From Xanthobacteraceae bacterium (GTDB lineage Bacteria > Pseudomonadota > Alphaproteobacteria > Rhizobiales > Xanthobacteraceae), in NCBI GenBank assembly GCA_049285335.1, contig JBAPZR010000639.1:12386-76385 (forward strand): a DNA stretch of 64,000 nt. Reading direction: 5' to 3'. A model generated the notes under the pieces. That model was not told where the DNA came from and did not search any database. It was given only the letters and a program-made list of their open reading frames with translations. Both the position numbers and the translations under genes were made by a program. Within the stretch, counting starts at the first letter, position 1; each line of letters opens with the position of its first letter. Positions 1 to 62,669 of this stretch are shown here, in pieces.

Positions 1-406
1 TCTCGCCTCGCGGCTCGAAGCGCGGACCAAGGACTATCGAGTGCCCATCGTCATAGGCTCGCGAACGGCGGAAGCGGCGCAGCGCAAATTCGCCGTCATG
101 GAAATCGATTTGATCCTGGTGAAGGGCAAAACGCAGCTGGAAGCCGTGTTCGCCGTGCTGGGCCGTGCCGAGATCGAAGCCGACGCCCGTTGCGTAGAGT
201 TGCGGGAGCTGAATGCGCAAATGCTTGCGCATTTCCGCAAACAGCAATGGGACGATGCGCTGCAAATAAGCTTGCGCTGCCGCAAGCTCGCCAATGGCTT
301 CGATCTTTCAGGTCTTTACGACATGTACGAGGAACGCATCGGGGCCTATCGTGCGCATCCGCCGGGATCGGATTGGGACGGGGTATACGAAGCCGAGACG
401 AAGTGA
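1..406 (+). CDS. Class III adenylate/guanylate cyclase, C-terminal fragment (5' end lies outside the window)
   Basis: Frame is open from position 2. Begins ..LASRLEARTKDYRVPIVIGSRT, matching the NLASRLE-type cyclase catalytic motif, and stops at 406. Confidence 0.7.
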   Translation, partial: LASRLEARTKDYRVPIVIGSRTAEAAQRKFAVMEIDLILVKGKTQLEAVFAVLGRAEIEADARCVELRELNAQMLAHFRKQQWDDALQISLRCRKLANGFDLSGLYDMYEERIGAYRAHPPGSDWDGVYEAETK

Positions 407-528
407 CCCTCTCCGGCCGAATGACCCTCGCGTCGCGCCGTACGGGTTATGCCCCTAAGCGGAATCAGGTGCGCGCAGAGCGATCCGGCCGCTTCGCGGG
501 TCCCGCGTTACAAATTGTCGCAGGATGA

Positions 529-1080
529 TCAGTTCCGGCCGCCGCCTGCCAGCACGGCGCGGGTGGCCCGATCGGGCCCAAAATCGTCGACGCTGTCGAT
601 GGCAAGGAGATCGGCAAGGCGCGTGCGAGCGCGATTGACGCGACTCTTGATGGTGCCGACGGCGCAGCCGCAGATGGCCGCCGCATCGTCGTAGGAGAAG
701 CCGGAAGCGCCCACCAAGATCAACGCTTCGCGCTGATCGGCCGGCAATTTCGCGAGCGCGGCGCGAAATTCCTGGAACTCGACGCGTCCAGTCTGTTCTG
801 GATGCGACTTTAAAGTTTCGGCATAGCGGCCCTCGGCGTCCTCCACCTCGCGCCGCCGCTTGCGATATTCGGATCGGAACAGGTTGCGCAAAATGGTGAA
901 CAGCCATGCCGGCATATTGGTGCCCGGCTCGAACGAATCGATATGGGCCAGCGCGCGCAGGAGGGTCTCCTGCACCAGATCATCGGCGCGATCGATGTTC
1001 CCGCACAACGAAATGGCAAACGCGCGCAGGCTCGGCACGGTGGCGAGAACTTGATCGCGTATCGCAGGGTCAAGCTTCAT
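529..1080 (-). CDS. ecfG: ECF sigma factor, EcfG (general stress response) type
   Basis: 183 aa with sigma-70 region 2 (DDLVQETLLRAL) and region 4 (REALILVGASGFSYDDAAAICGCAVGTIKSRV). Lies 16 nt downstream of nepR and divergent from phyR. Confidence 0.85.
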   Translation of the reverse strand: MKLDPAIRDQVLATVPSLRAFAISLCGNIDRADDLVQETLLRALAHIDSFEPGTNMPAWLFTILRNLFRSEYRKRRREVEDAEGRYAETLKSHPEQTGRVEFQEFRAALAKLPADQREALILVGASGFSYDDAAAICGCAVGTIKSRVNRARTRLADLLAIDSVDDFGPDRATRAVLAGGGRN

Positions 1081-1096
1081 GCTGCTCTGTCCACCA

Positions 1097-1354
1097 TCAA
1101 TCCTGGTCTTGGTCGCTCAAGCGACGAACGAGATCGGCGAGATGCTGGGGTACGCCTTGGTTGACGACGTCGTTGTACATAGCACGCAACTGCTGCCCGA
1201 TTCGGGCCTGAACCTCGCGACCCAGGCGTGCCTCGCCCCTGTGATGCGTCGTGGCTGGCCTCGCCATCGGATCTTGGCTCTCCGGCTTGTCCGCGACCGG
1301 GTCCAGGCTGGTCTTGCGGTGCTTCATCGCGTCATCTTTCCCCCGTTCGCCCAT
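1097..1354 (-). CDS. nepR: Anti-sigma factor NepR
   Basis: 85 aa with IGQQLRAMYNDVVNQGVPQHLADLVRRL, the conserved NepR helix pattern. Position between the promoter and ecfG fits. An alternative start at 1327 is possible. Confidence 0.75.
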   Translation of the reverse strand: MGERGKDDAMKHRKTSLDPVADKPESQDPMARPATTHHRGEARLGREVQARIGQQLRAMYNDVVNQGVPQHLADLVRRLSDQDQD

Positions 1355-1380
1355 TGCCGCTACCTCGATTAACGTGCGCT

Positions 1381-1406
1381 AACGCCCTGACAGGCGGGGG
1401 AGTTCC
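1381..1406 (-). promoter_or_regulatory. Sigma-EcfG type promoter for nepR-ecfG
   Basis: The minus strand reads GGAAC (1406-1402), 17-nt spacer, CGTT (1384-1381), about 27 nt upstream of the nepR start. Confidence 0.6.
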
Positions 1407-1424
1407 GCCCATCCGGCCACATCC

Positions 1425-1449
1425 GGAACTTTTTTTGCGTTTAGTGGTT
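1425..1449 (+). promoter_or_regulatory. Candidate sigma-EcfG type promoter for phyR (imperfect -10)
   Basis: GGAAC (1425-1429), 16-nt spacer, GGTT (1446-1449), about 45 nt upstream of the phyR GTG. Confidence 0.4.
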
Positions 1450-1492
1450 TTCGCCAATAACCTCAGCGCACTATGGAAGGGGAGGGTGTTTC

Positions 1493-2311
1493 GTGTCTAC
1501 TTCGCAAGCCGTACTCCAACATCTGCCGTCGTTGCGCCGCTATGCGCGCGCTTTGACCGGTAATCAGGCTTCCGGCGACGCCTACGTCGTCGCGACGGTG
1601 GAGTCGTTGATCGCCAGCCCGCAAACCCTTGAGGAAAGCGCCAATCTGCGCGTTGGCCTCTATCGGCTGTTCACGAAAATCTGGAACTCCGTGGCCGTGA
1701 ACGACAAAGCGGAAGCCGCCGCGACGGCCCTGCCGCCGGAACGGCACCTCACGCAGATCACGCCGCGGCCGCGTCAGGCTTTCTTGCTGGTCGCTCTGGA
1801 AGGTTTCTCCGAAGACGATGCGGCGGAAGTGCTCGATTGCGATCTGCAAACGCTTCGCGCGCTCGTCGAGGAATCCGGCCGCGAGCTCGCGGCCGAGATC
1901 GCAACCGATGTTCTCATCATCGAAGATGAGACTTTCATCGCGATGGACATCGAAGCCCTGGTCGAGAGCCTCGGCCATAAGGTCATCGGCATTGCGCGCA
2001 CCCACAGCGAGGCCCTGGCTTTGGCAAAAACAAAACGCCCAGGACTCATTCTCGCCGATATCCAGCTTGCCGACGGCAGTTCGGGGCTCGATGCAGTCAA
2101 TGAGCTCCTCGGCTCGTTCGAGGTGCCGGTGATCTTTATCACTGCTTATCCGGAGCGATTCCTCACCGGACAACGGCCCGAACCGGCCTTCCTGATCGCA
2201 AAGCCGTTCCAGGTCGCGGTGGTGTCGGCGGTCGTGAGCCAGGCGATGTTCTTCGGCCGCAAAGCGCGCCAGCGCGAGCGCAAGCCAAGCGAACGCCAAG
2301 CGAGCTTGTAA
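1493..2311 (+). CDS. phyR: Anti-anti-sigma response regulator PhyR (sigma-like domain plus receiver)
   Basis: 272 aa. The N-terminus is an ECF-sigma-like domain (LPSLRRYARALTG). The C-terminus is a receiver domain (VLIIEDETFIAMDIE...LILADIQLADGSSG). GTG start preceded by GGAAGGGGAGGG. Confidence 0.9.
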   Translation: MSTSQAVLQHLPSLRRYARALTGNQASGDAYVVATVESLIASPQTLEESANLRVGLYRLFTKIWNSVAVNDKAEAAATALPPERHLTQITPRPRQAFLLVALEGFSEDDAAEVLDCDLQTLRALVEESGRELAAEIATDVLIIEDETFIAMDIEALVESLGHKVIGIARTHSEALALAKTKRPGLILADIQLADGSSGLDAVNELLGSFEVPVIFITAYPERFLTGQRPEPAFLIAKPFQVAVVSAVVSQAMFFGRKARQRERKPSERQASL

Positions 2312-2483
2312 TTTCAAGCTTGCAAATTCTCGTCGCGTTGAATCCCGCGTGTGAAGCAAAATTGCGCTTGGTCGTGCGATGTTCTGCGCGCGGCCGGTGA
2401 CGATGGTGTTGTGGCGACGGCGTCGCGATGCGTTTGTTGCTCAGATTTGTTGTTTGATCCTGCGCACGGTCGGCGCGTTGGTC

Positions 2484-2525
2484 AAAAAAGTTCGGGCGCA
2501 GCCGATCGGCATATCGGCTGCGCCC
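2484..2525 (-). terminator. Rho-independent terminator oriented for the minus strand
   Basis: Perfect 13-bp stem GGGCGCAGCCGAT/ATCGGCTGCGCCC with a 6-nt loop. A T6 run is present only on the minus-strand side. Confidence 0.55.
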
Positions 2526-2576
2526 ACATTCACGAACGGCCAAGCACGGGGGAGGGGGAAAGAATGGCCGCTCGCA
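2484..2576 (-). ncRNA. Candidate small RNA: C-rich-loop hairpin plus intrinsic terminator
   Basis: Minus strand has a 12-bp stem (2576-2565 pairs with 2542-2531, 3 G-U pairs) around the 22-nt loop UUCUUUCCCCCUCCCCCGUGCU. A 5-nt linker follows, then a 13-bp perfect terminator stem (2525-2494), then GAAC and U6 (2489-2484). GGAAC-N16-GCTT lies just upstream (2607-2583). No minus-strand gene exists for several kb to the right. Confidence 0.4.
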
Positions 2577-2676
2577 GTTGATAAGCGCCAACCGCCATTT
2601 TTGTTCCCGCCTGTTCCCGTTGCTCATAATTCGCAAGGAGAAAATGGCAATAAGGACTTTGGCTGCCCCCGATGAT

Positions 2677-2701
2677 GGAACGCACGCCGCCGATGCACGT
2701 T
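2677..2701 (+). promoter_or_regulatory. Consensus sigma-EcfG promoter upstream of the small exported-protein gene
   Basis: Exact GGAAC (2677-2681), N16, CGTT (2698-2701), 86 nt upstream of the ATG at 2787. Confidence 0.6.
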
Positions 2702-2786
2702 AGCGAGGCGGTATGGTTGGCTTGGGGGGTTTTCGTGTGCCTGATCGATCCTAGGGGTGATCGCATCGGTGCGGCGGAGCGGTCCG

Positions 2787-3107
2787 ATGGCCAAGCTTAT
2801 GATACGAATTGCAGGCGCGTTCGGCGTAACGGCGCTGGCGGCTTTTTTCCTCGGCTTCCTTCCGCTTTTGGGTGATCCCACCGCCGGAGCCGGCGTGGCC
2901 GCCAAGAGAACGCCGTCGTTCTCGGTGAACCGGGAATTGAAGGGCGATCGTCTGCCGATTTCGAACGTAACGCCGGCGGCGCCGCGCAGCGGTTCGAATG
3001 TGGAGCGATCGGATAGGCCCGATCAGATTCCGGTTGGGTGCGAAGGCTCGTTTTCGCCGATCTCGGCTCCTCAGTTCGCCCATGTTTTCGGGCGTTGCAT
3101 GACCTAG
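2787..3107 (+). CDS. Small exported or membrane-anchored hypothetical protein
   Basis: ATG at 2787 with GGAG 6 nt upstream. N-terminal hydrophobic segment MAKLMIRIAGAFGVTALAAFFLGFLPLLG. The ORF-track GTG at 2757 is a less likely start. Confidence 0.6.
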   Translation: MAKLMIRIAGAFGVTALAAFFLGFLPLLGDPTAGAGVAAKRTPSFSVNRELKGDRLPISNVTPAAPRSGSNVERSDRPDQIPVGCEGSFSPISAPQFAHVFGRCMT

Positions 3108-3267
3108 TGTGCCGATTTCGAAGTTCGTCACACCTCGCGGCACTTTCTTAGCGAACTTCGGAATCGAAAGGACACTACCAAGTAAGTAATTCTAGTGTGG
3201 TTTTTGGATTTGAAGTTCCTATACGCGAGTGTCGCCAAATCATTGGAACTTCAAATCCACCACACTA
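3108..3267 (+). repeat. Composite double-hairpin repeat element, copy 1 (paralog at 42421-42577)
   Basis: Starts 1 nt after the stop codon. Hairpin 1 pairs 3113-3127 with 3152-3166 (15 bp). Hairpin 2 pairs 3193-3219 with 3245-3267. About 75 percent identical by eye to the second copy. Confidence 0.75.
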
Positions 3268-3446
3268 GGTCGTGGGACCTGATCGTTCGCACCGTTCCAT
3301 CTGATTGAAGAGTCTCCGAACCAAATTTACGACGGCGTCCCCAGATCGCACCCGTTGATTGGCGCCGTTGCCGTTTGCGTCGACATCCCCTTCCGTCATC
3401 GCACCAAATCGCTACAGTGGCGCCCGCTTGAGGCGGGGGAGACACC

Positions 3447-4349
3447 GTGAAAGAAGAAGTTGTCAGCTTTCAATCGGCCGGCTTGCGGCTGCATGGCATG
3501 ATCGGCGCGCCCGAAACATTACGCGCCGGGGGGCGGCGGGCGGCCTTTTTGGTTCTGCACGGCTTCGGTTCGAATTCGGAAAGCACCAACGTTTTGCAGC
3601 CGACCCGCGTTCTCAACGAATTCGGCTATGTCACGCTGCGTTTCGACATGCGCGGTTGCGGCAAAAGCGAAGGCCAATTCGGCCGCGTCATCTGTCTCGA
3701 GCAAGTTGAGGATCTCAACAATGCGTTGACGTTCCTGGCGACCCATCCCGCCGTCGATCCGGCGCGTATCGGCGCCATCGGTTCGAGCTTCGGCGGCGCG
3801 GTCGCCGTTTATGCCGGCGGCACCAATCCGCGCTTGGCCGCGGTGATTTCGAACGGCGGCTGGGGTCACGGCGAACGCAAATTCCGCGGCCAGCACCGCA
3901 CGCCCGAGGCGTGGGCCAAATTCACCAAAATGCTGGAGGAGGGGCGCGCTCATCGCGCGCGAACCGGACAATCGCTGATGGTGCCGCGCTACGACATCGT
4001 GCCGATACCCGAGCACGTCCGGCAGAAACTGGAGCGGCAAAAGGTCGGAATGCTGGCGCCGAATTCCGTCGAAATGTTTCCGGCGGAAACGGCGCAGAGC
4101 ATGTTCGATTTCCGCGCCGAGGACGTGGTCGGGCAAATCGCGCCGCGGCCGCTATTATTGATCCACGCCGCCAACGATTCCGTCACGCCCACCGAGCAGT
4201 CGATCGAAATGTTCAAGCGCGCCGGGCAACCGACCGAGCTGCATCTGTTCAGCGGGCTTGATCATTTTCTGTTCGCGGAGAATTCGACTCGGGTCTGGGC
4301 CGCGCTGCGCAATTGGCTCGACGCCTATTTCCCCACGGCGAGCTCATGA
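3447..4349 (+). CDS. Alpha/beta hydrolase
   Basis: 300 aa with the GSSFGG nucleophile elbow, HGFGS, and the late acid/His motifs ANDSV and LDHF. GTG start with GGGGGAGA upstream. Confidence 0.85.
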   Translation: MKEEVVSFQSAGLRLHGMIGAPETLRAGGRRAAFLVLHGFGSNSESTNVLQPTRVLNEFGYVTLRFDMRGCGKSEGQFGRVICLEQVEDLNNALTFLATHPAVDPARIGAIGSSFGGAVAVYAGGTNPRLAAVISNGGWGHGERKFRGQHRTPEAWAKFTKMLEEGRAHRARTGQSLMVPRYDIVPIPEHVRQKLERQKVGMLAPNSVEMFPAETAQSMFDFRAEDVVGQIAPRPLLLIHAANDSVTPTEQSIEMFKRAGQPTELHLFSGLDHFLFAENSTRVWAALRNWLDAYFPTASS

Positions 4350-4416
4350 TACGAAACAGTGCGGGGCTTTTTTTGATAAACGTTGCAAACGATCAGATGA
4401 CAGCCCGGAGCGCCGC

Positions 4417-5469
4417 GTGAATTCAGACAAGATCTCGGTCGGCCACGAGGAGCTCGGCCGTTTCATCCGCGATCTCCTTGTCAAGTACGACGCCAGCGAC
4501 CACGACGCCGCGGTGGTCGCGAACGGTTTGGTCTGGGCCAATCTGCGCGGCAGCGACGGCCACGGCGTGTCGCGCCTGCCGCGTTACCTCAATCTCCTCG
4601 CGCGCCGCGAGATCGATCCGAAGGCGCAGCCGCGCATCGTGCACGATCGCGCCGCGACCTTCGTGGTCGATGCCGGTCACGGATTTGGTCCGGTCGCGGT
4701 AATGCACGCGGCCGCGCTAACGGTCGAGCGGGCGAAGCAGACCGGCATTTGCTTGGCGCTCATTCGACATACCACGCATACCGGCGCGATCGGACGCTAT
4801 GCGCAATGGATTGCCGAGAACGGCTGCGCCGCGGTGCTGATGGGCGCAGGTCCCGCGTTGATGGCTTATTACGGCGCGCGCGTGGCGAGCATGGCGACAA
4901 GCCCGATCGCGATTGCGGTGCCGAGCGGCAAAGGCCCCATCGTGCTCGACATGGCGACCAGCACGATATCCAACGGAAAGATCCTGCAAGCGCGCAATAC
5001 GGGTGCGGCGCTCCCGGAAGGCGCCGCGCTCAATGCGGCCGGCCAAGCCACCACCGATGCGAAAGACGCCGAGATCCTTTTGCCGCTTGGCGGGCCTAAG
5101 GGCTCGGGTCTCGCCTTGATGTTCGAAATGCTGGCGAGCGTGCTCGCCGGCGCGCCGATTCAGGCGCGGGCGCTCGGGCCGGAAAAGCGCACGCGTCACA
5201 CCAGCAATACCGCGATGTTCGTCATCGACATCGAAACGTTCCGGCCGCTCGGCGAGTTCGACACCGACGCCGATGTGCTGACCGCCATCGTCAAAGCGCT
5301 GCCGTTGCAGGCGGGATTCGACGAAATTCTTCTGCCCGGCGAGCGCGGAAACCGCACCGCGGCCGCGCGCCGCATATCGGGCATTCCGATTCCGAAGAAG
5401 CTATGGGAGGAACTCGGCGCCATCGCCAAGGCGCATGGCGTCACGCCTCTGCAAGCCGCAGGCCGATAA
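4417..5469 (+). CDS. Ldh2-family malate/L-lactate/ureidoglycolate-type dehydrogenase
   Basis: ANLRGSDGHGVSRLPRYL and HTGAIGRY motifs are typical of Ldh_2. Start moved to the GTG at 4417 (GGAG 6 nt upstream); the track start at 4258 overlaps the previous gene. Confidence 0.85.
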   Translation: MNSDKISVGHEELGRFIRDLLVKYDASDHDAAVVANGLVWANLRGSDGHGVSRLPRYLNLLARREIDPKAQPRIVHDRAATFVVDAGHGFGPVAVMHAAALTVERAKQTGICLALIRHTTHTGAIGRYAQWIAENGCAAVLMGAGPALMAYYGARVASMATSPIAIAVPSGKGPIVLDMATSTISNGKILQARNTGAALPEGAALNAAGQATTDAKDAEILLPLGGPKGSGLALMFEMLASVLAGAPIQARALGPEKRTRHTSNTAMFVIDIETFRPLGEFDTDADVLTAIVKALPLQAGFDEILLPGERGNRTAAARRISGIPIPKKLWEELGAIAKAHGVTPLQAAGR

Positions 5470-6153
5470 GCCGCTCGAGCGCCTCATGATCGGCGAGAAG
5501 CTCAGCCGAGCGTCCACGATGGACGACGCGGCCCCGCTCCAGCACGATCACATTTTCCATGAGCGATAATGCAATTTCCACATGCTGTTCGACCAGCATG
5601 ACGGCGTTCGAACGCTCCTTCATCATGCGCTGGATTGCCGCGGCGAGTTCGTCGACGATAATCGGCGCCAAGCCTTCGAGCGGCTCGTCGAGCAGAAGCA
5701 AAGCCGGATTCGTCATCAGCGCCCGCGCAATCGCCAGCATTTGCTGTTCGCCGCCCGATAGCTGATTGCCGAAATTGCGCCGGCGTTCGGCGAGACGGGG
5801 AAAAAGCTCGTAGACGGCCGGCAGCGTCCAACGGCCGCCGCGCGCGGCGACGGTGAGATTCTCCTCAACGGTGAGGGTGGAGAAGATTTCCCGCTCTTGA
5901 GCCACCCAGCCGATGCCGGCGCGTGCGCGGCGATGCGGCGCCTCATAGGTGATGTCGGCGCCGCGCCAGAAGAGGCGCCCGCGGCTCACCCGTGTGTAAC
6001 CCATGATGGTGAGCAGCAAAGTGGATTTGCCGACCCCGTTGCGTCCGAGCACCGCAATACCGTCTTGCGCGGGGAGCTCGAGCGAAATGCCGTCGAGCAC
6101 GACAGCGGAGCCGTAGCCGGCGCGCAGATCGGCGATGGAAAGCAATAGCTCGC

Positions 6154-6157
<4 letters not shown>
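5441..6157 (-). CDS. livF: Branched-chain amino acid ABC transporter ATP-binding protein (LivF-like)
   Basis: Walker A GRNGVGKST, signature LSGGEQQML, Walker B LLLLDEP. Confidence 0.9.
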
Positions 6158-17010: not shown

Positions 17011-18242
17011 CTCCGATAGTCCCCGTTGATCGCGACATACTCTTTGGTCAGATCGCAGGTCAGCACCCGATCGCGGCCCTTGCCGAGACCGAGCGCCACT
17101 TTGAGCGTGATTTCGGGTCGCGTCATGGCCGCCGACACGGCGGCCTCGTCATAGGCCGGATCGCGCGCACCCCTATGGGCAACGCGAATGCCGCCAAACC
17201 AGATCGACAGCCGGTCGCGATCGGCCGGCTCGCCGGCTTTGCCCACCGCCATCACGACGCGACCCCAGTTGGCGTCCTCGCCGGCGATCGCGGTTTTGAC
17301 CAAGGGCGAATTGGCGATCGATAGCGCAATGCGGCGCGCCGAGATTTTCGAGACCGCACCCTCGACGATGATCTCGACGAGCTTGCGGGCGCCCTCGCCG
17401 TCGCGCGCGACTTGCTCGGCGAGGCTTGCCAGCACGGCGAAAAAGGCCTTGCGGAACGGCGCCAGACGCGGATCGTTGCTGCGGGCGATGCGGGGCGCGG
17501 TCTTGGCGCCGCCGGTCGCAAAAGCCAACAGCGTGTCCGATGTCGAGGTGTCGCCGTCGATAGTGACCGCGTTGAACGTGTCGACGACGCCCTCGCGCAA
17601 CAAGGTCTGCAAAACCGGCGACGCTATCGGCGCGTCGGTGAAGACGAATGCGAGCATGGTCGCCATATCCGGCGCAATCATGCCGGCGCCCTTGGCGAAG
17701 CCATTGATGACGACCTCGGCGCCGCCAATGCGCGTGCGCGCTGTCGCCAGCTTTGGAAACGTATCGGTGGTCATGATCGCCTTGGCGGCGTCGCCATAGC
17801 CATCCGGCCGCGCCGCGGCGACAAGTTTGGTCATAACTCCCTCGAAGGCCTGCGCGGCGAGCGGCTCGCCGATCACGCCGGTTGAGGCGAGGAACACTTC
17901 CGATGTTTTGCAGCCGACCGCCGCCGCCGCAAGTTTCGCGGTCATGGCGCAAGCCTTGCGGCCGCTCTTGCCGGTAAAGGCGTTGGCATTGCCGGAATTG
18001 ACGACAAGCGCGCGGGCGCGGCGGCCCTTGAGGTGCGCGCGGCACCATTCGACCGGCGCCGAGGGACATTTCGAGCGCGTGAAGACCCCGGCGACGCTCG
18101 TGTCGCGGTCGAAGACCGCGAGCATCACATCGGTGCGGTCCTTATACCGGATGCCGGCGGCGGCGGTCGCGAAGCGCACGCCGGCGATCTCCGGCAGCGC
18201 AGGAAATGTCTTTGGGGCGAGAGGGGAAATGGCGGGGAACAT
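17007..18242 (-). CDS. argJ: Bifunctional glutamate N-acetyltransferase/amino-acid acetyltransferase
   Basis: 411 aa with [22 protein letters not shown] (autoprocessing site region), ending INGDYRS. Confidence 0.95.
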
Positions 18243-42420: not shown

Positions 42421-42577
42421 TGTCCCGATTCCGAAATTCTCCGCAGCTTGCGGCACGCTCTTAGCGAATTTCGGAATCGATAAAGACACTCGCAAGTTTA
42501 TAATTCCAGTTGTTTTTGGATTTGACGTTCCAATGCGCGTGTGCCGCAGAACGGTAGGAACTTCAAATCCACCACAC
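42421..42577 (+). repeat. Composite double-hairpin repeat element, copy 2 (paralog of 3108-3267)
   Basis: Starts 7 nt after the stop codon. Hairpin 1 pairs 42426-42439 with 42466-42479 (14 bp, perfect). Hairpin 2's right arm GGAACTTCAAATCCACCACAC is conserved; its left arm is degenerate. Confidence 0.75.
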
Positions 42578-62592: not shown

Positions 62593-62669
62593 GGTCCCGT
62601 AGCTCAGCAGGATAGAGCAGCGGTTTCCTAAACCGAAGGTCAGAGGTTCGAGTCCTCTCGGGACCGCCA
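62593..62669 (+). tRNA. tRNA-Arg (anticodon CCT)
   Basis: Cloverleaf folded by hand. Acceptor GGTCCCG/CGGGACC, D arm GCTC/GAGC, anticodon loop TTCCTAA, T arm AGAGG-TTCGAGT-CCTCT, discriminator G, encoded CCA. Confidence 0.92.

Follow-up and report, generated by a model that had tools for sequence, protein, structure and literature searches.

We identified, in a 64,000-nucleotide stretch of contig JBAPZR010000639.1 from a Xanthobacteraceae bacterium (hereafter the window), a gene for a noncoding RNA of approximately 90 nucleotides (nt), which lies on the minus strand beside the PhyR-NepR-EcfG locus of the general stress response (GSR) and converges with phyR. It is probable that this small RNA (sRNA) gene is genuine and independently transcribed, and that it is of the GsrN/ReC64 kind, its EcfG-type promoter being combined with a C-rich loop that the 5' hairpin leaves exposed. 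The boundaries, strand, structure, and noncoding nature of the RNA, as well as the conservation of its promoter motif and its strict linkage to phyR, were observed in a comparison set of 80 related Xanthobacteraceae loci from metagenome-assembled genomes (MAGs), in which PhyR identity ranged from 74 to 94%, and in metagenome contigs. The PhyR relatives assign the window to an uncultured lineage of Xanthobacteraceae.

The predicted transcript runs from position 2576 to 2484 of the minus strand and is about 89 to 93 nt long, with a transcription start site (TSS) predicted at 2576 ± 4 and a 3' end within the U-tract, 172 nt downstream of phyR. Its 5' part forms hairpin 1 (2531 to 2576, minus strand), in which 2576-2565 pair with 2542-2531 through 12 base pairs, three of them G-U (RNAfold retains 11), and which contains the conserved core CGGCC/GGCCG. 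This stem presents a single-stranded 22-nt loop, UUCUUUCCCCCUCCCCCGUGCU (2564-2543), carrying two runs of five to seven C residues split by U, and this loop is the presumed seed. A 5-nt linker (2530-2526) connects hairpin 1 to an intrinsic terminator (2525-2484), whose 13-bp stem is made of the 5' arm GGGCGCAGCCGAT (2525-2513) and the 3' arm AUCGGCUGCGCCC (2506-2494) around a 6-nt loop, AUGCCG (2512-2507), and is followed by GAAC (2493-2490) and T6 (2489-2484), all read on the minus strand. Hence, the GC-rich hairpin and the U-tract on the transcribed strand that define a Rho-independent terminator are both present. In a terminator scan of positions 1 to 6000, this was the strongest site, with 14 pairs, 10 of them G-C, and it was listed on the minus strand alone.

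A preliminary description of this DNA had proposed the same 13-bp stem, GAAC, and U6, as well as the 12-bp helix, the 22-nt loop, and the 5-nt linker, and reading of the strand confirmed each position. It had also stated that the terminator works only on the minus strand, with which both the scan and the distribution of U-tracts among relatives (see below) agree, and that no minus-strand gene follows for about 3 kb to the right. The latter is correct, since the nearest credible minus-strand gene is an ATP-binding cassette (ABC) ATPase gene at 5441-6157, the first open reading frame (ORF) on that strand to the right with a Pfam domain. Besides, we compared the fold of a 97-nt RNA with those of 200 dinucleotide shuffles. 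The RNA reached -48.9 kcal/mol versus -28.4 ± 3.0 kcal/mol for the shuffles (z = -6.9), none of which was as good (0/200), and its plus-strand counterpart folded more weakly (-41.7 kcal/mol).

When the entire 450-nt spacer downstream of phyR was compared with the related loci by blastn, the sole strongly conserved island was 2483-2610, that is, the promoter plus the RNA; a part at about 2691-2759 was also retained in some closer relatives. A MAFFT alignment of 45 homologous sequences revealed that conservation turns on at an invariant GGAAC and turns off after the U-tract, with column identities rising from 41% in the upstream flank to 74% over the promoter and 88% over the RNA, then falling to 36% in the downstream flank. 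The loop reached 91%, and the only part with a higher value was the terminator stem (94%). A covariance model of 96 positions, built from the RNA part of this conserved block, recovered 52 full-length copies in the 80 loci, scoring 48 to 112 bits, in addition to truncated and weak ones. The conservation of the hairpin and loop in related phyR-downstream spacers, for which the preliminary description had suggested looking with blastn and covariance modelling, was thus found in 52/80 loci, and all 52 copies were antiparallel to and convergent with phyR. Within the window, the model scored 93.4 bits on the minus strand versus 34 bits on the plus strand, and it found no second copy (paralogue) of the RNA in the 64 kb. 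Furthermore, an exact-pattern scan of metagenome contigs for the loop-stem core yielded at least 120 contigs, which together with the MAG loci brings the family to at least 170 sequences. The phyR gene was visible on 77 of these contigs and converged with the RNA gene in 77/77, with a gap that was mostly 120 to 340 nt and sometimes about 1.2 kb.

Both helices showed covariation. We took the structure statistics from a model-based alignment of 52 sequences, which is biased toward structure because it was fitted to the covariance model; in this alignment, 97.1% of the cells were paired, double compensatory changes occurred in 12 of the 22 pairs, and no shuffle out of 500 matched this result, whereas slid controls were just 22 to 43% paired. 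The MAFFT alignment gave a similar picture, with 96.5% of the cells paired and compensatory double changes at 6 pairs. Hairpin 1, with nine modelled pairs, was 94.8% paired over 51 distinct sequences and had double compensatory changes at four pairs; the terminator stem, with 13 modelled pairs, was 98.6% paired and had compensatory changes at eight. In the most divergent homologues, compensatory changes had altered the terminator stem and G-C had replaced the A-U pair that closes the loop, and the loop was retained as CCCCCUCCCC(U)CGUGCU in them. The strand was also indicated by the alignments: G-U cells outnumbered A-C cells by 39 to 10, and a run of at least four T residues followed the hairpin on this strand in 40/45 sequences, compared with 0/45 on the opposite strand. 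Altogether, the limits of conservation, the covarying helices, the strand-bound U-tract, and the lack of a conserved reading frame support the order of promoter, hairpin, linker, and terminator in an RNA of about 93 nt that had been proposed earlier.

Approximately fifteen lower-scoring metagenome contigs carry sRNA sequences that have a longer loop (e.g., CCAUUCCCAUCCCCCCAAGCCCCCCGUGCUUGG) and form a divergent subfamily. Two of these contigs (L106:1250-1483 and L116:2225-2690) contain two or three units in tandem, whose GGGCGCAG...CUGCGCCC terminators resemble one another, and at least two units of the L116 array were preceded by GGAAC-N17-CGTT. These tandem units look like paralogue arrays and recall the CcsR and alpha-r14 clusters. 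The CcsR1-4/alpha-r14 "cuckoo" RNAs of Rhodobacter and Rhizobiales are stress induced and carry C/U-rich anti-Shine-Dalgarno-like loops (CCUCCUCCC) on hairpins. The present RNA shares with them a C/U-rich loop on a hairpin, and a few of its divergent relatives share the tandem arrangement. It differs from them in its loop motif (CCCCCUCCCCC instead of CCUCCUCCC), in having a single motif-bearing hairpin instead of several, and in being preceded by an EcfG-type promoter instead of an RpoHI/HII promoter. In one MAG (L028:4950-5125), unrelated sequence stood in place of the promoter and C-rich hairpin, and all that was left of the sRNA gene downstream of phyR was the 3' half of its terminator; this copy is apparently a gene remnant.

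The EcfG-type promoter of the sRNA consists of a -35 element, GGAAC (2603 to 2607, minus strand), and a -10 element, GCTT (2583 to 2586, minus strand), separated by a 16-nt spacer, which is the placement given in the preliminary description. GGAAC was invariant in 45/45 aligned relatives, the sequence just upstream of it being unconserved, and so was TT located 18 nt later (44 to 45 of 45 at positions 24 and 25). The alignment consensus was GGAAC-A-AA-N13-G-Y-TT with fixed spacing, giving a family consensus of G(Y)TT for the -10 element. Moreover, GGAAC-N18-TT preceded the core in 95 of the 117 metagenome contigs with enough sequence. Judging from these motifs, dependence of the sRNA on EcfG is a well-supported prediction. 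A strict search for GGAAC-N16/17-CGTT detected just three sites in the 64 kb, at 1381-1406 (minus), 2677-2701 (plus), and 17453-17477 (plus), and the relaxed pattern GGAAC-N18-TT additionally captured the phyR promoter at 1425-1449 (plus) and the sRNA promoter. There are therefore four EcfG-type sites within 1.3 kb, because the sRNA gene, the ORF divergent from it, nepR-ecfG, and phyR have one each. The remaining site at 17453-17477, an exact GGAAC-N16-CGTT, possibly serves another EcfG-dependent gene.

The sRNA, which is clade specific and absent from Rfam, belongs to the already described GsrN/ReC64 kind of element rather than to a new one. An sRNA embedded in the PhyR-NepR-EcfG locus is also no novelty as such, as ReC64 (PMC3892343) and the GSR-linked gsrN homologues (PMC5869019) precede it. 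GsrN (CCNA_R0081) of Caulobacter crescentus (PMC5869019; 10.1101/344820) is sigma-T dependent and acts on katG mRNA, where its C-rich 5' loop pairs with a G-tract at the 5' end. Its homologues are described as "typically proximal" to ecfG/nepR/phyR, and the gene is found beside this locus in most Caulobacteraceae and in the cases predicted for Rhizobiaceae, Brucella, Rhodopseudomonas, and Bradyrhizobium (PMC5869019). A follow-up paper described a coherent feed-forward loop of sigT, gsrN, and osrP. Three of the features by which Tien et al. (2018) recognized GsrN-like RNAs (PMC5869019), namely, an EcfG-type promoter, a position near the GSR locus, and an exposed C-rich 5' loop, are found here. 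The promoter of gsrN is GGAAC-N16-CGTT and that of the present sRNA is GGAAC-N16-GCTT, both RNAs, when their folds are compared, end in an intrinsic terminator and have a 5' stem on which a C-run is held single-stranded, and the gene adjoins ecfG/nepR/phyR, as it does in most Caulobacteraceae. However, the present sRNA is about 93 nt, whereas the numbering of GsrN constructs extends to nt 112 and the GsrN sequence folded for the comparison had 118 nt. Its 22-nt loop is uninterrupted and carries two C5-7 runs, where GsrN has a C6 tract and an internal mini-hairpin, and it lacks a long second single-stranded region.

ReC64 of Rhizobium etli (Jans et al. 2013, PMC3892343) is 88 nt long; its gene lies downstream of phyR-tcrY and has an EcfG1 promoter. 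Its TSS was determined by 5' RACE, it was no longer expressed in ecfG1 mutants, and EcfG activated its expression in Escherichia coli (PMC3892343). Compared by description rather than by sequence, the two RNAs share size class, locus, and promoter type, although ReC64 comes from Rhizobiaceae, a kinase gene separates phyR and the RNA in R. etli, and neither a function nor a C-rich loop is described in PMC3892343. For Rhodopseudomonas palustris and Bradyrhizobium diazoefficiens, gsrN-like genes were predicted on the sole grounds of their position and an EcfG site (PMC5869019, Fig. 9 of Tien et al. 2018). The same two features are conserved in the present family, a likeness that again is one of description. 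We take Rhodopseudomonas and Bradyrhizobium to be placed in Xanthobacteraceae by GTDB, and the predicted genes of these two species are the likeliest orthologues because they would belong to the same family.

Based on these likenesses, the following course of events may be proposed. Under stress, phosphorylated PhyR frees sigma-EcfG from NepR, and sigma-EcfG would then initiate transcription from GGAAC-N16-GCTT, with a start approximately 7 to 10 nt downstream of the -10 element. In the resulting transcript, the 5' hairpin would hold the 22-nt loop with its two C-runs single-stranded, followed by the strong terminator and U-tail. The loop would then act in trans by base pairing with G-rich mRNA leaders or ribosome-binding sites and alter translation or stability, by analogy with the action of Caulobacter GsrN on katG and osrP. 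Rare G-runs are present in leaders and start regions of genes at the GSR locus, and the C-runs would pair with them.

The leader of the divergent neighbor is the most plausible specific target, with the G-run in it as the best candidate site. This gene is a 106-amino-acid (aa) ORF (MAKLMIRIAGAFGVTALAAFF..., 2787 to 3107, plus strand), whose product has a hydrophobic N terminus and two C-terminal cysteines and has no Pfam or NCBIfam match. Its own EcfG-type promoter, GGAAC-N16-CGTT (2677 to 2701, plus strand), stands back to back with that of the sRNA. The 106-aa protein adjoined the sRNA in 44 of the 55 sRNA-positive loci, compared with a presence in 8 of the 25 sRNA-negative loci, and it is fast evolving, with 36 to 64% identity where PhyR has about 82 to 94%. 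A GGAAC-N15-17-[CG]GTT site occurred at most 700 nt, and mostly 95 to 230 nt, from the sRNA 5' end in 36/52 loci. The leader carries a conserved motif, GCUYGGGGG(Y)UUUU (2719-2733), in which GGGG is invariant in the leader alignment, and within it GGCUUGGGGGG (2719 to 2729, plus strand) is a candidate pairing site for the C-rich loop. In the window, the neighbor leader has its G-run about 18 nt in. A run of at least five G residues was present in 24/36 neighbor leaders, the median distance past the -10 element being 25 nt, versus 2.4% of the 80-nt windows of the same loci, and for loop pairing the neighbor leader ranked at a median within the top 5.9% of same-locus windows. Known GsrN targets are sigma-T dependent themselves and have a G-tract close to the 5' end of the mRNA, so that a feed-forward loop arises. 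Here, the neighbor has an EcfG-type promoter and a leader G-run, and pairing with this leader would create a feed-forward loop of sigma factor, sRNA, and target. Of the target signals, only one outlasted the controls, namely, that a G-run, otherwise rare, is enriched at this position in the neighbor leader.

Other readings of the conserved block were weighed against that of an independent RNA gene. It is extremely improbable that the block represents a small protein of the minus strand, for which a 78-aa ORF (2766-2530) and a 22-aa ORF (MAVGAYQLRAAILSPSPVLGRS) come into consideration. The 78-aa ORF stops at 2530, directly before the terminator, and GC-rich DNA leaves most frames open through the block. 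Nevertheless, the loop segment was 17, 18, 19, 20, or 21 nt long (18, 19, and 20 all being common) between conserved flanks, and because of these 1- to 2-nt indels within the conserved block there is no conserved reading frame; both ORFs were dismissed for this reason. Conservation begins at the promoter rather than at a start codon, the upstream two-thirds of the 78-aa ORF is unconserved, the substitutions in the stems are compensatory, and the ORF has no Pfam or NCBIfam match. A role in cis on phyR instead of in trans, either as a bidirectional terminator or insulator or as antisense to a read-through phyR 3' untranslated region, would accord with the strict convergence described above and its mostly short gap, as well as with the near-palindromic terminator stem, which folds on the plus strand too. 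We consider it very unlikely, and reject it, because phyR usually has a terminator of its own, the plus strand lacks a U-tract after the hairpin (0/45), and a terminator function leaves the invariant GGAAC and the conserved C-rich loop unexplained. Indeed, a crude scan detected a separate phyR intrinsic terminator within the gap in 32/52 loci, many of them strong and of the AUGGCCGGGC...GCCCGGCCAU-UUUU type; that of the window lies at 2406-2431. Several loci, moreover, have the RNA gene 0.5 to 1.2 kb from phyR.

If the RNA is taken as genuine, its mode of action could still be other than pairing with the neighbor leader. The loop is kept as a composition pattern (C-run, U, C-run) with run lengths varying by 1 to 2 nt, orientation controls showed no extended target-specific complementarity, and a strong terminator with a U-tail is typical of Hfq-binding RNAs, all of which would suit a sponge or decoy that binds or titrates some protein or RNA partner, such as Hfq, a G-rich sRNA, or a protein with affinity for C-rich RNA, instead of pairing with mRNA. 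This alternative is quite unlikely, however: no candidate partner was identified for it, GsrN, the closest characterized analogue, pairs with mRNA through its C-run as compensatory mutants demonstrated (PMC5869019), and G-runs are rare in these genomes, yet one sits in the neighboring EcfG-type-promoted leader. It is likewise rather unlikely that the sRNA mainly feeds back on the GSR switch, its loop pairing with the phyR Shine-Dalgarno sequence and the first nepR codons and so tuning the PhyR/NepR ratio. The phyR Shine-Dalgarno complement GGGGAGGG (1479-1486) is an 8-mer that occurs elsewhere in the window at just one other site, the gene's antisense aside, and the complement in nepR codons 4 to 7, GGGGGAAAGA (1335-1344), is an exact 10-mer otherwise found in the window only on the antisense strand of the sRNA gene. 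The nepR site was the second-best non-self site for the loop out of 25,588 windows, with a predicted duplex of -26.9 kcal/mol that includes the AUG, and over the 52 loci the median ranks were the top 0.43% for the phyR start region and the top 0.25% for the nepR region. In loci without the RNA, though, the consensus loop still ranked the phyR start within the top 1.05% and the nepR region within the top 0.69%, and since these loci rank nearly as high, the signal is mostly that of generic G-rich start regions. A reversed loop was almost as good, the difference at phyR being -0.7 kcal/mol (p = 0.1) and that at nepR -1.95 kcal/mol. Besides, the nepR match varies in length, many loci having GGGGAAAAGA paired with UUCUUCCCCCC, and the nepR G-run is also under coding constraint (Arg-Gly-Lys). 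A fuller version, for which we see a small chance, is that the EcfG-made sRNA is a feedback element that would use its bipartite C-rich loop to bind both the phyR Shine-Dalgarno sequence GGGGAGGG and the nepR start and first seven codons (AUGGG...GGGGGAAAGA), reset the ratio of anti-sigma to anti-anti-sigma factor, and co-regulate the divergent, EcfG-dependent small membrane protein. Literature searches found no sRNA feedback onto core GSR regulators. To our knowledge, none has been reported. We prefer a feed-forward loop with the divergent neighbor, and regard feedback on phyR and nepR as an alternative of lower probability. As for individual target calls on phyR, nepR, and the neighbor leader, the striking early ranks were mostly removed by the controls with RNA-less loci and the reversed loop, and these calls were set aside.

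Several results weigh against the reading of an EcfG-driven, GsrN-like RNA that targets its neighbor. The host is known solely from metagenome assemblies and MAGs. The sRNA is not universal among related phyR loci: it was not found within ±4 kb of phyR in about 20 Pseudolabrys-like loci whose sequence extends 4 kb downstream, and a renewed search with filters off of 11 no-hit loci, mostly Pseudolabrys-like, gave nothing convincing. Rfam 15 at gathering thresholds over the whole window matched a tRNA alone and no family at the sRNA, which includes the rhizobial alpha-r and BjrC sRNAs and the cuckoo RNAs as far as Rfam holds models of them, and at E ≤ 10 over 2250-3300 the lone overlap was with Pseudomonas P17, a match by chance at 9.7 bits. 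No similarity to gsrN of C. crescentus was detected either, as nhmmer with filters off (--max) and the 45-sequence profile gave no match at E ≤ 10 to the gsrN locus taken from the supplement of PMC5869019; because of this, we file the sRNA as one that works like GsrN, and not as a demonstrated homologue. Its -10 element, GCTT (family GYTT), is off the canonical CGTT. The preliminary description had called it imperfect for this reason, which is right as to the letters, but GCTT is acceptable as a -10 element because it falls within the published variation of EcfG sites: the R. etli motif is GGAAC-N16-CGTT (PMC3892343), and the sites of Sphingomonas melonis follow GGAAC-N17-20-GTT, with listed ones ending in GCTTT, CATT, and GATT (PMC6599016). 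Regarding the targets, the reversed loop paired as well as the real loop at the phyR start region, and equally well with the neighbor leader, so the target signal is one of a G-run meeting a C-run rather than of extended specific complementarity. In addition, the leader alignment contained only a 4-bp local hairpin without covariation as a structure that could sequester the ribosome-binding site of the neighbor.

The comparative data alone thus provide a new and well-supported RNA family, absent from Rfam, in an abundant uncultured soil lineage of Xanthobacteraceae. They extend to another lineage the proposal of Tien et al. (2018) that an EcfG-driven sRNA with a C-rich loop and linked to phyR recurs in the alphaproteobacterial GSR; this theme recurs although the primary sequence differs between families. 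The sRNA and small-protein genes, with back-to-back EcfG-type promoters and a G-run in the partner's leader, form a candidate module that can be tested as a feed-forward loop. The understanding of the pathway itself is unchanged, since the concept and two experimental precedents already exist.

The remainder of the locus has the expected GSR genes. The phyR gene (1493-2311, plus strand; Pfam PhyR_sigma2, PhyR_sigma-like, and Response_reg) converges with the sRNA gene, and nepR (1097-1354, minus strand; Pfam NepR) forms an operon with ecfG (529-1080, minus strand; Pfam Sigma70_r2/r4). The EcfG promoter of nepR-ecfG (GGAAC-N17-CGTT, 1381-1406, minus strand) is back to back with the EcfG-type promoter of phyR found by the motif scan (GGAAC-N18-TT, 1425-1449, plus strand), an arrangement expected for positive autoregulation of the GSR locus. 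At the nepR start (1327-1354, minus strand), third-codon-position variation across loci favors the upstream ATG (1354), which suggests that NepR has a conserved N-terminal extension, MGERGKDD, before the MKHRK start. The loop-complementary G-run of nepR falls within the codons of this extension.

Between the two divergent promoters of the sRNA and the 106-aa ORF, there is a 19-codon ORF, MAIRTLAAPDDGTHAADAR (2645-2704, within 2636-2704, plus strand), with a perfect AAGGAG Shine-Dalgarno sequence. It was set aside because its 5' two-thirds (2636 to about 2690) had no blastn match in relatives, and its 3' end overlaps the conserved promoter region. Elsewhere, the window contains two copies of a palindromic element of about 90 bp with 42% GC (3184-3274 and approximately 42518-42570), the arms of which carry GGATTTGAAGTTCC; five arm matches of this type were observed versus 0.36 expected. 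The element looks like a miniature inverted-repeat transposable element or a repetitive extragenic palindromic-type repeat, and it produced a spurious mir-276 match in Rfam. The lone match at Rfam gathering thresholds mentioned above is a tRNA gene at 62593-62666 (plus strand).

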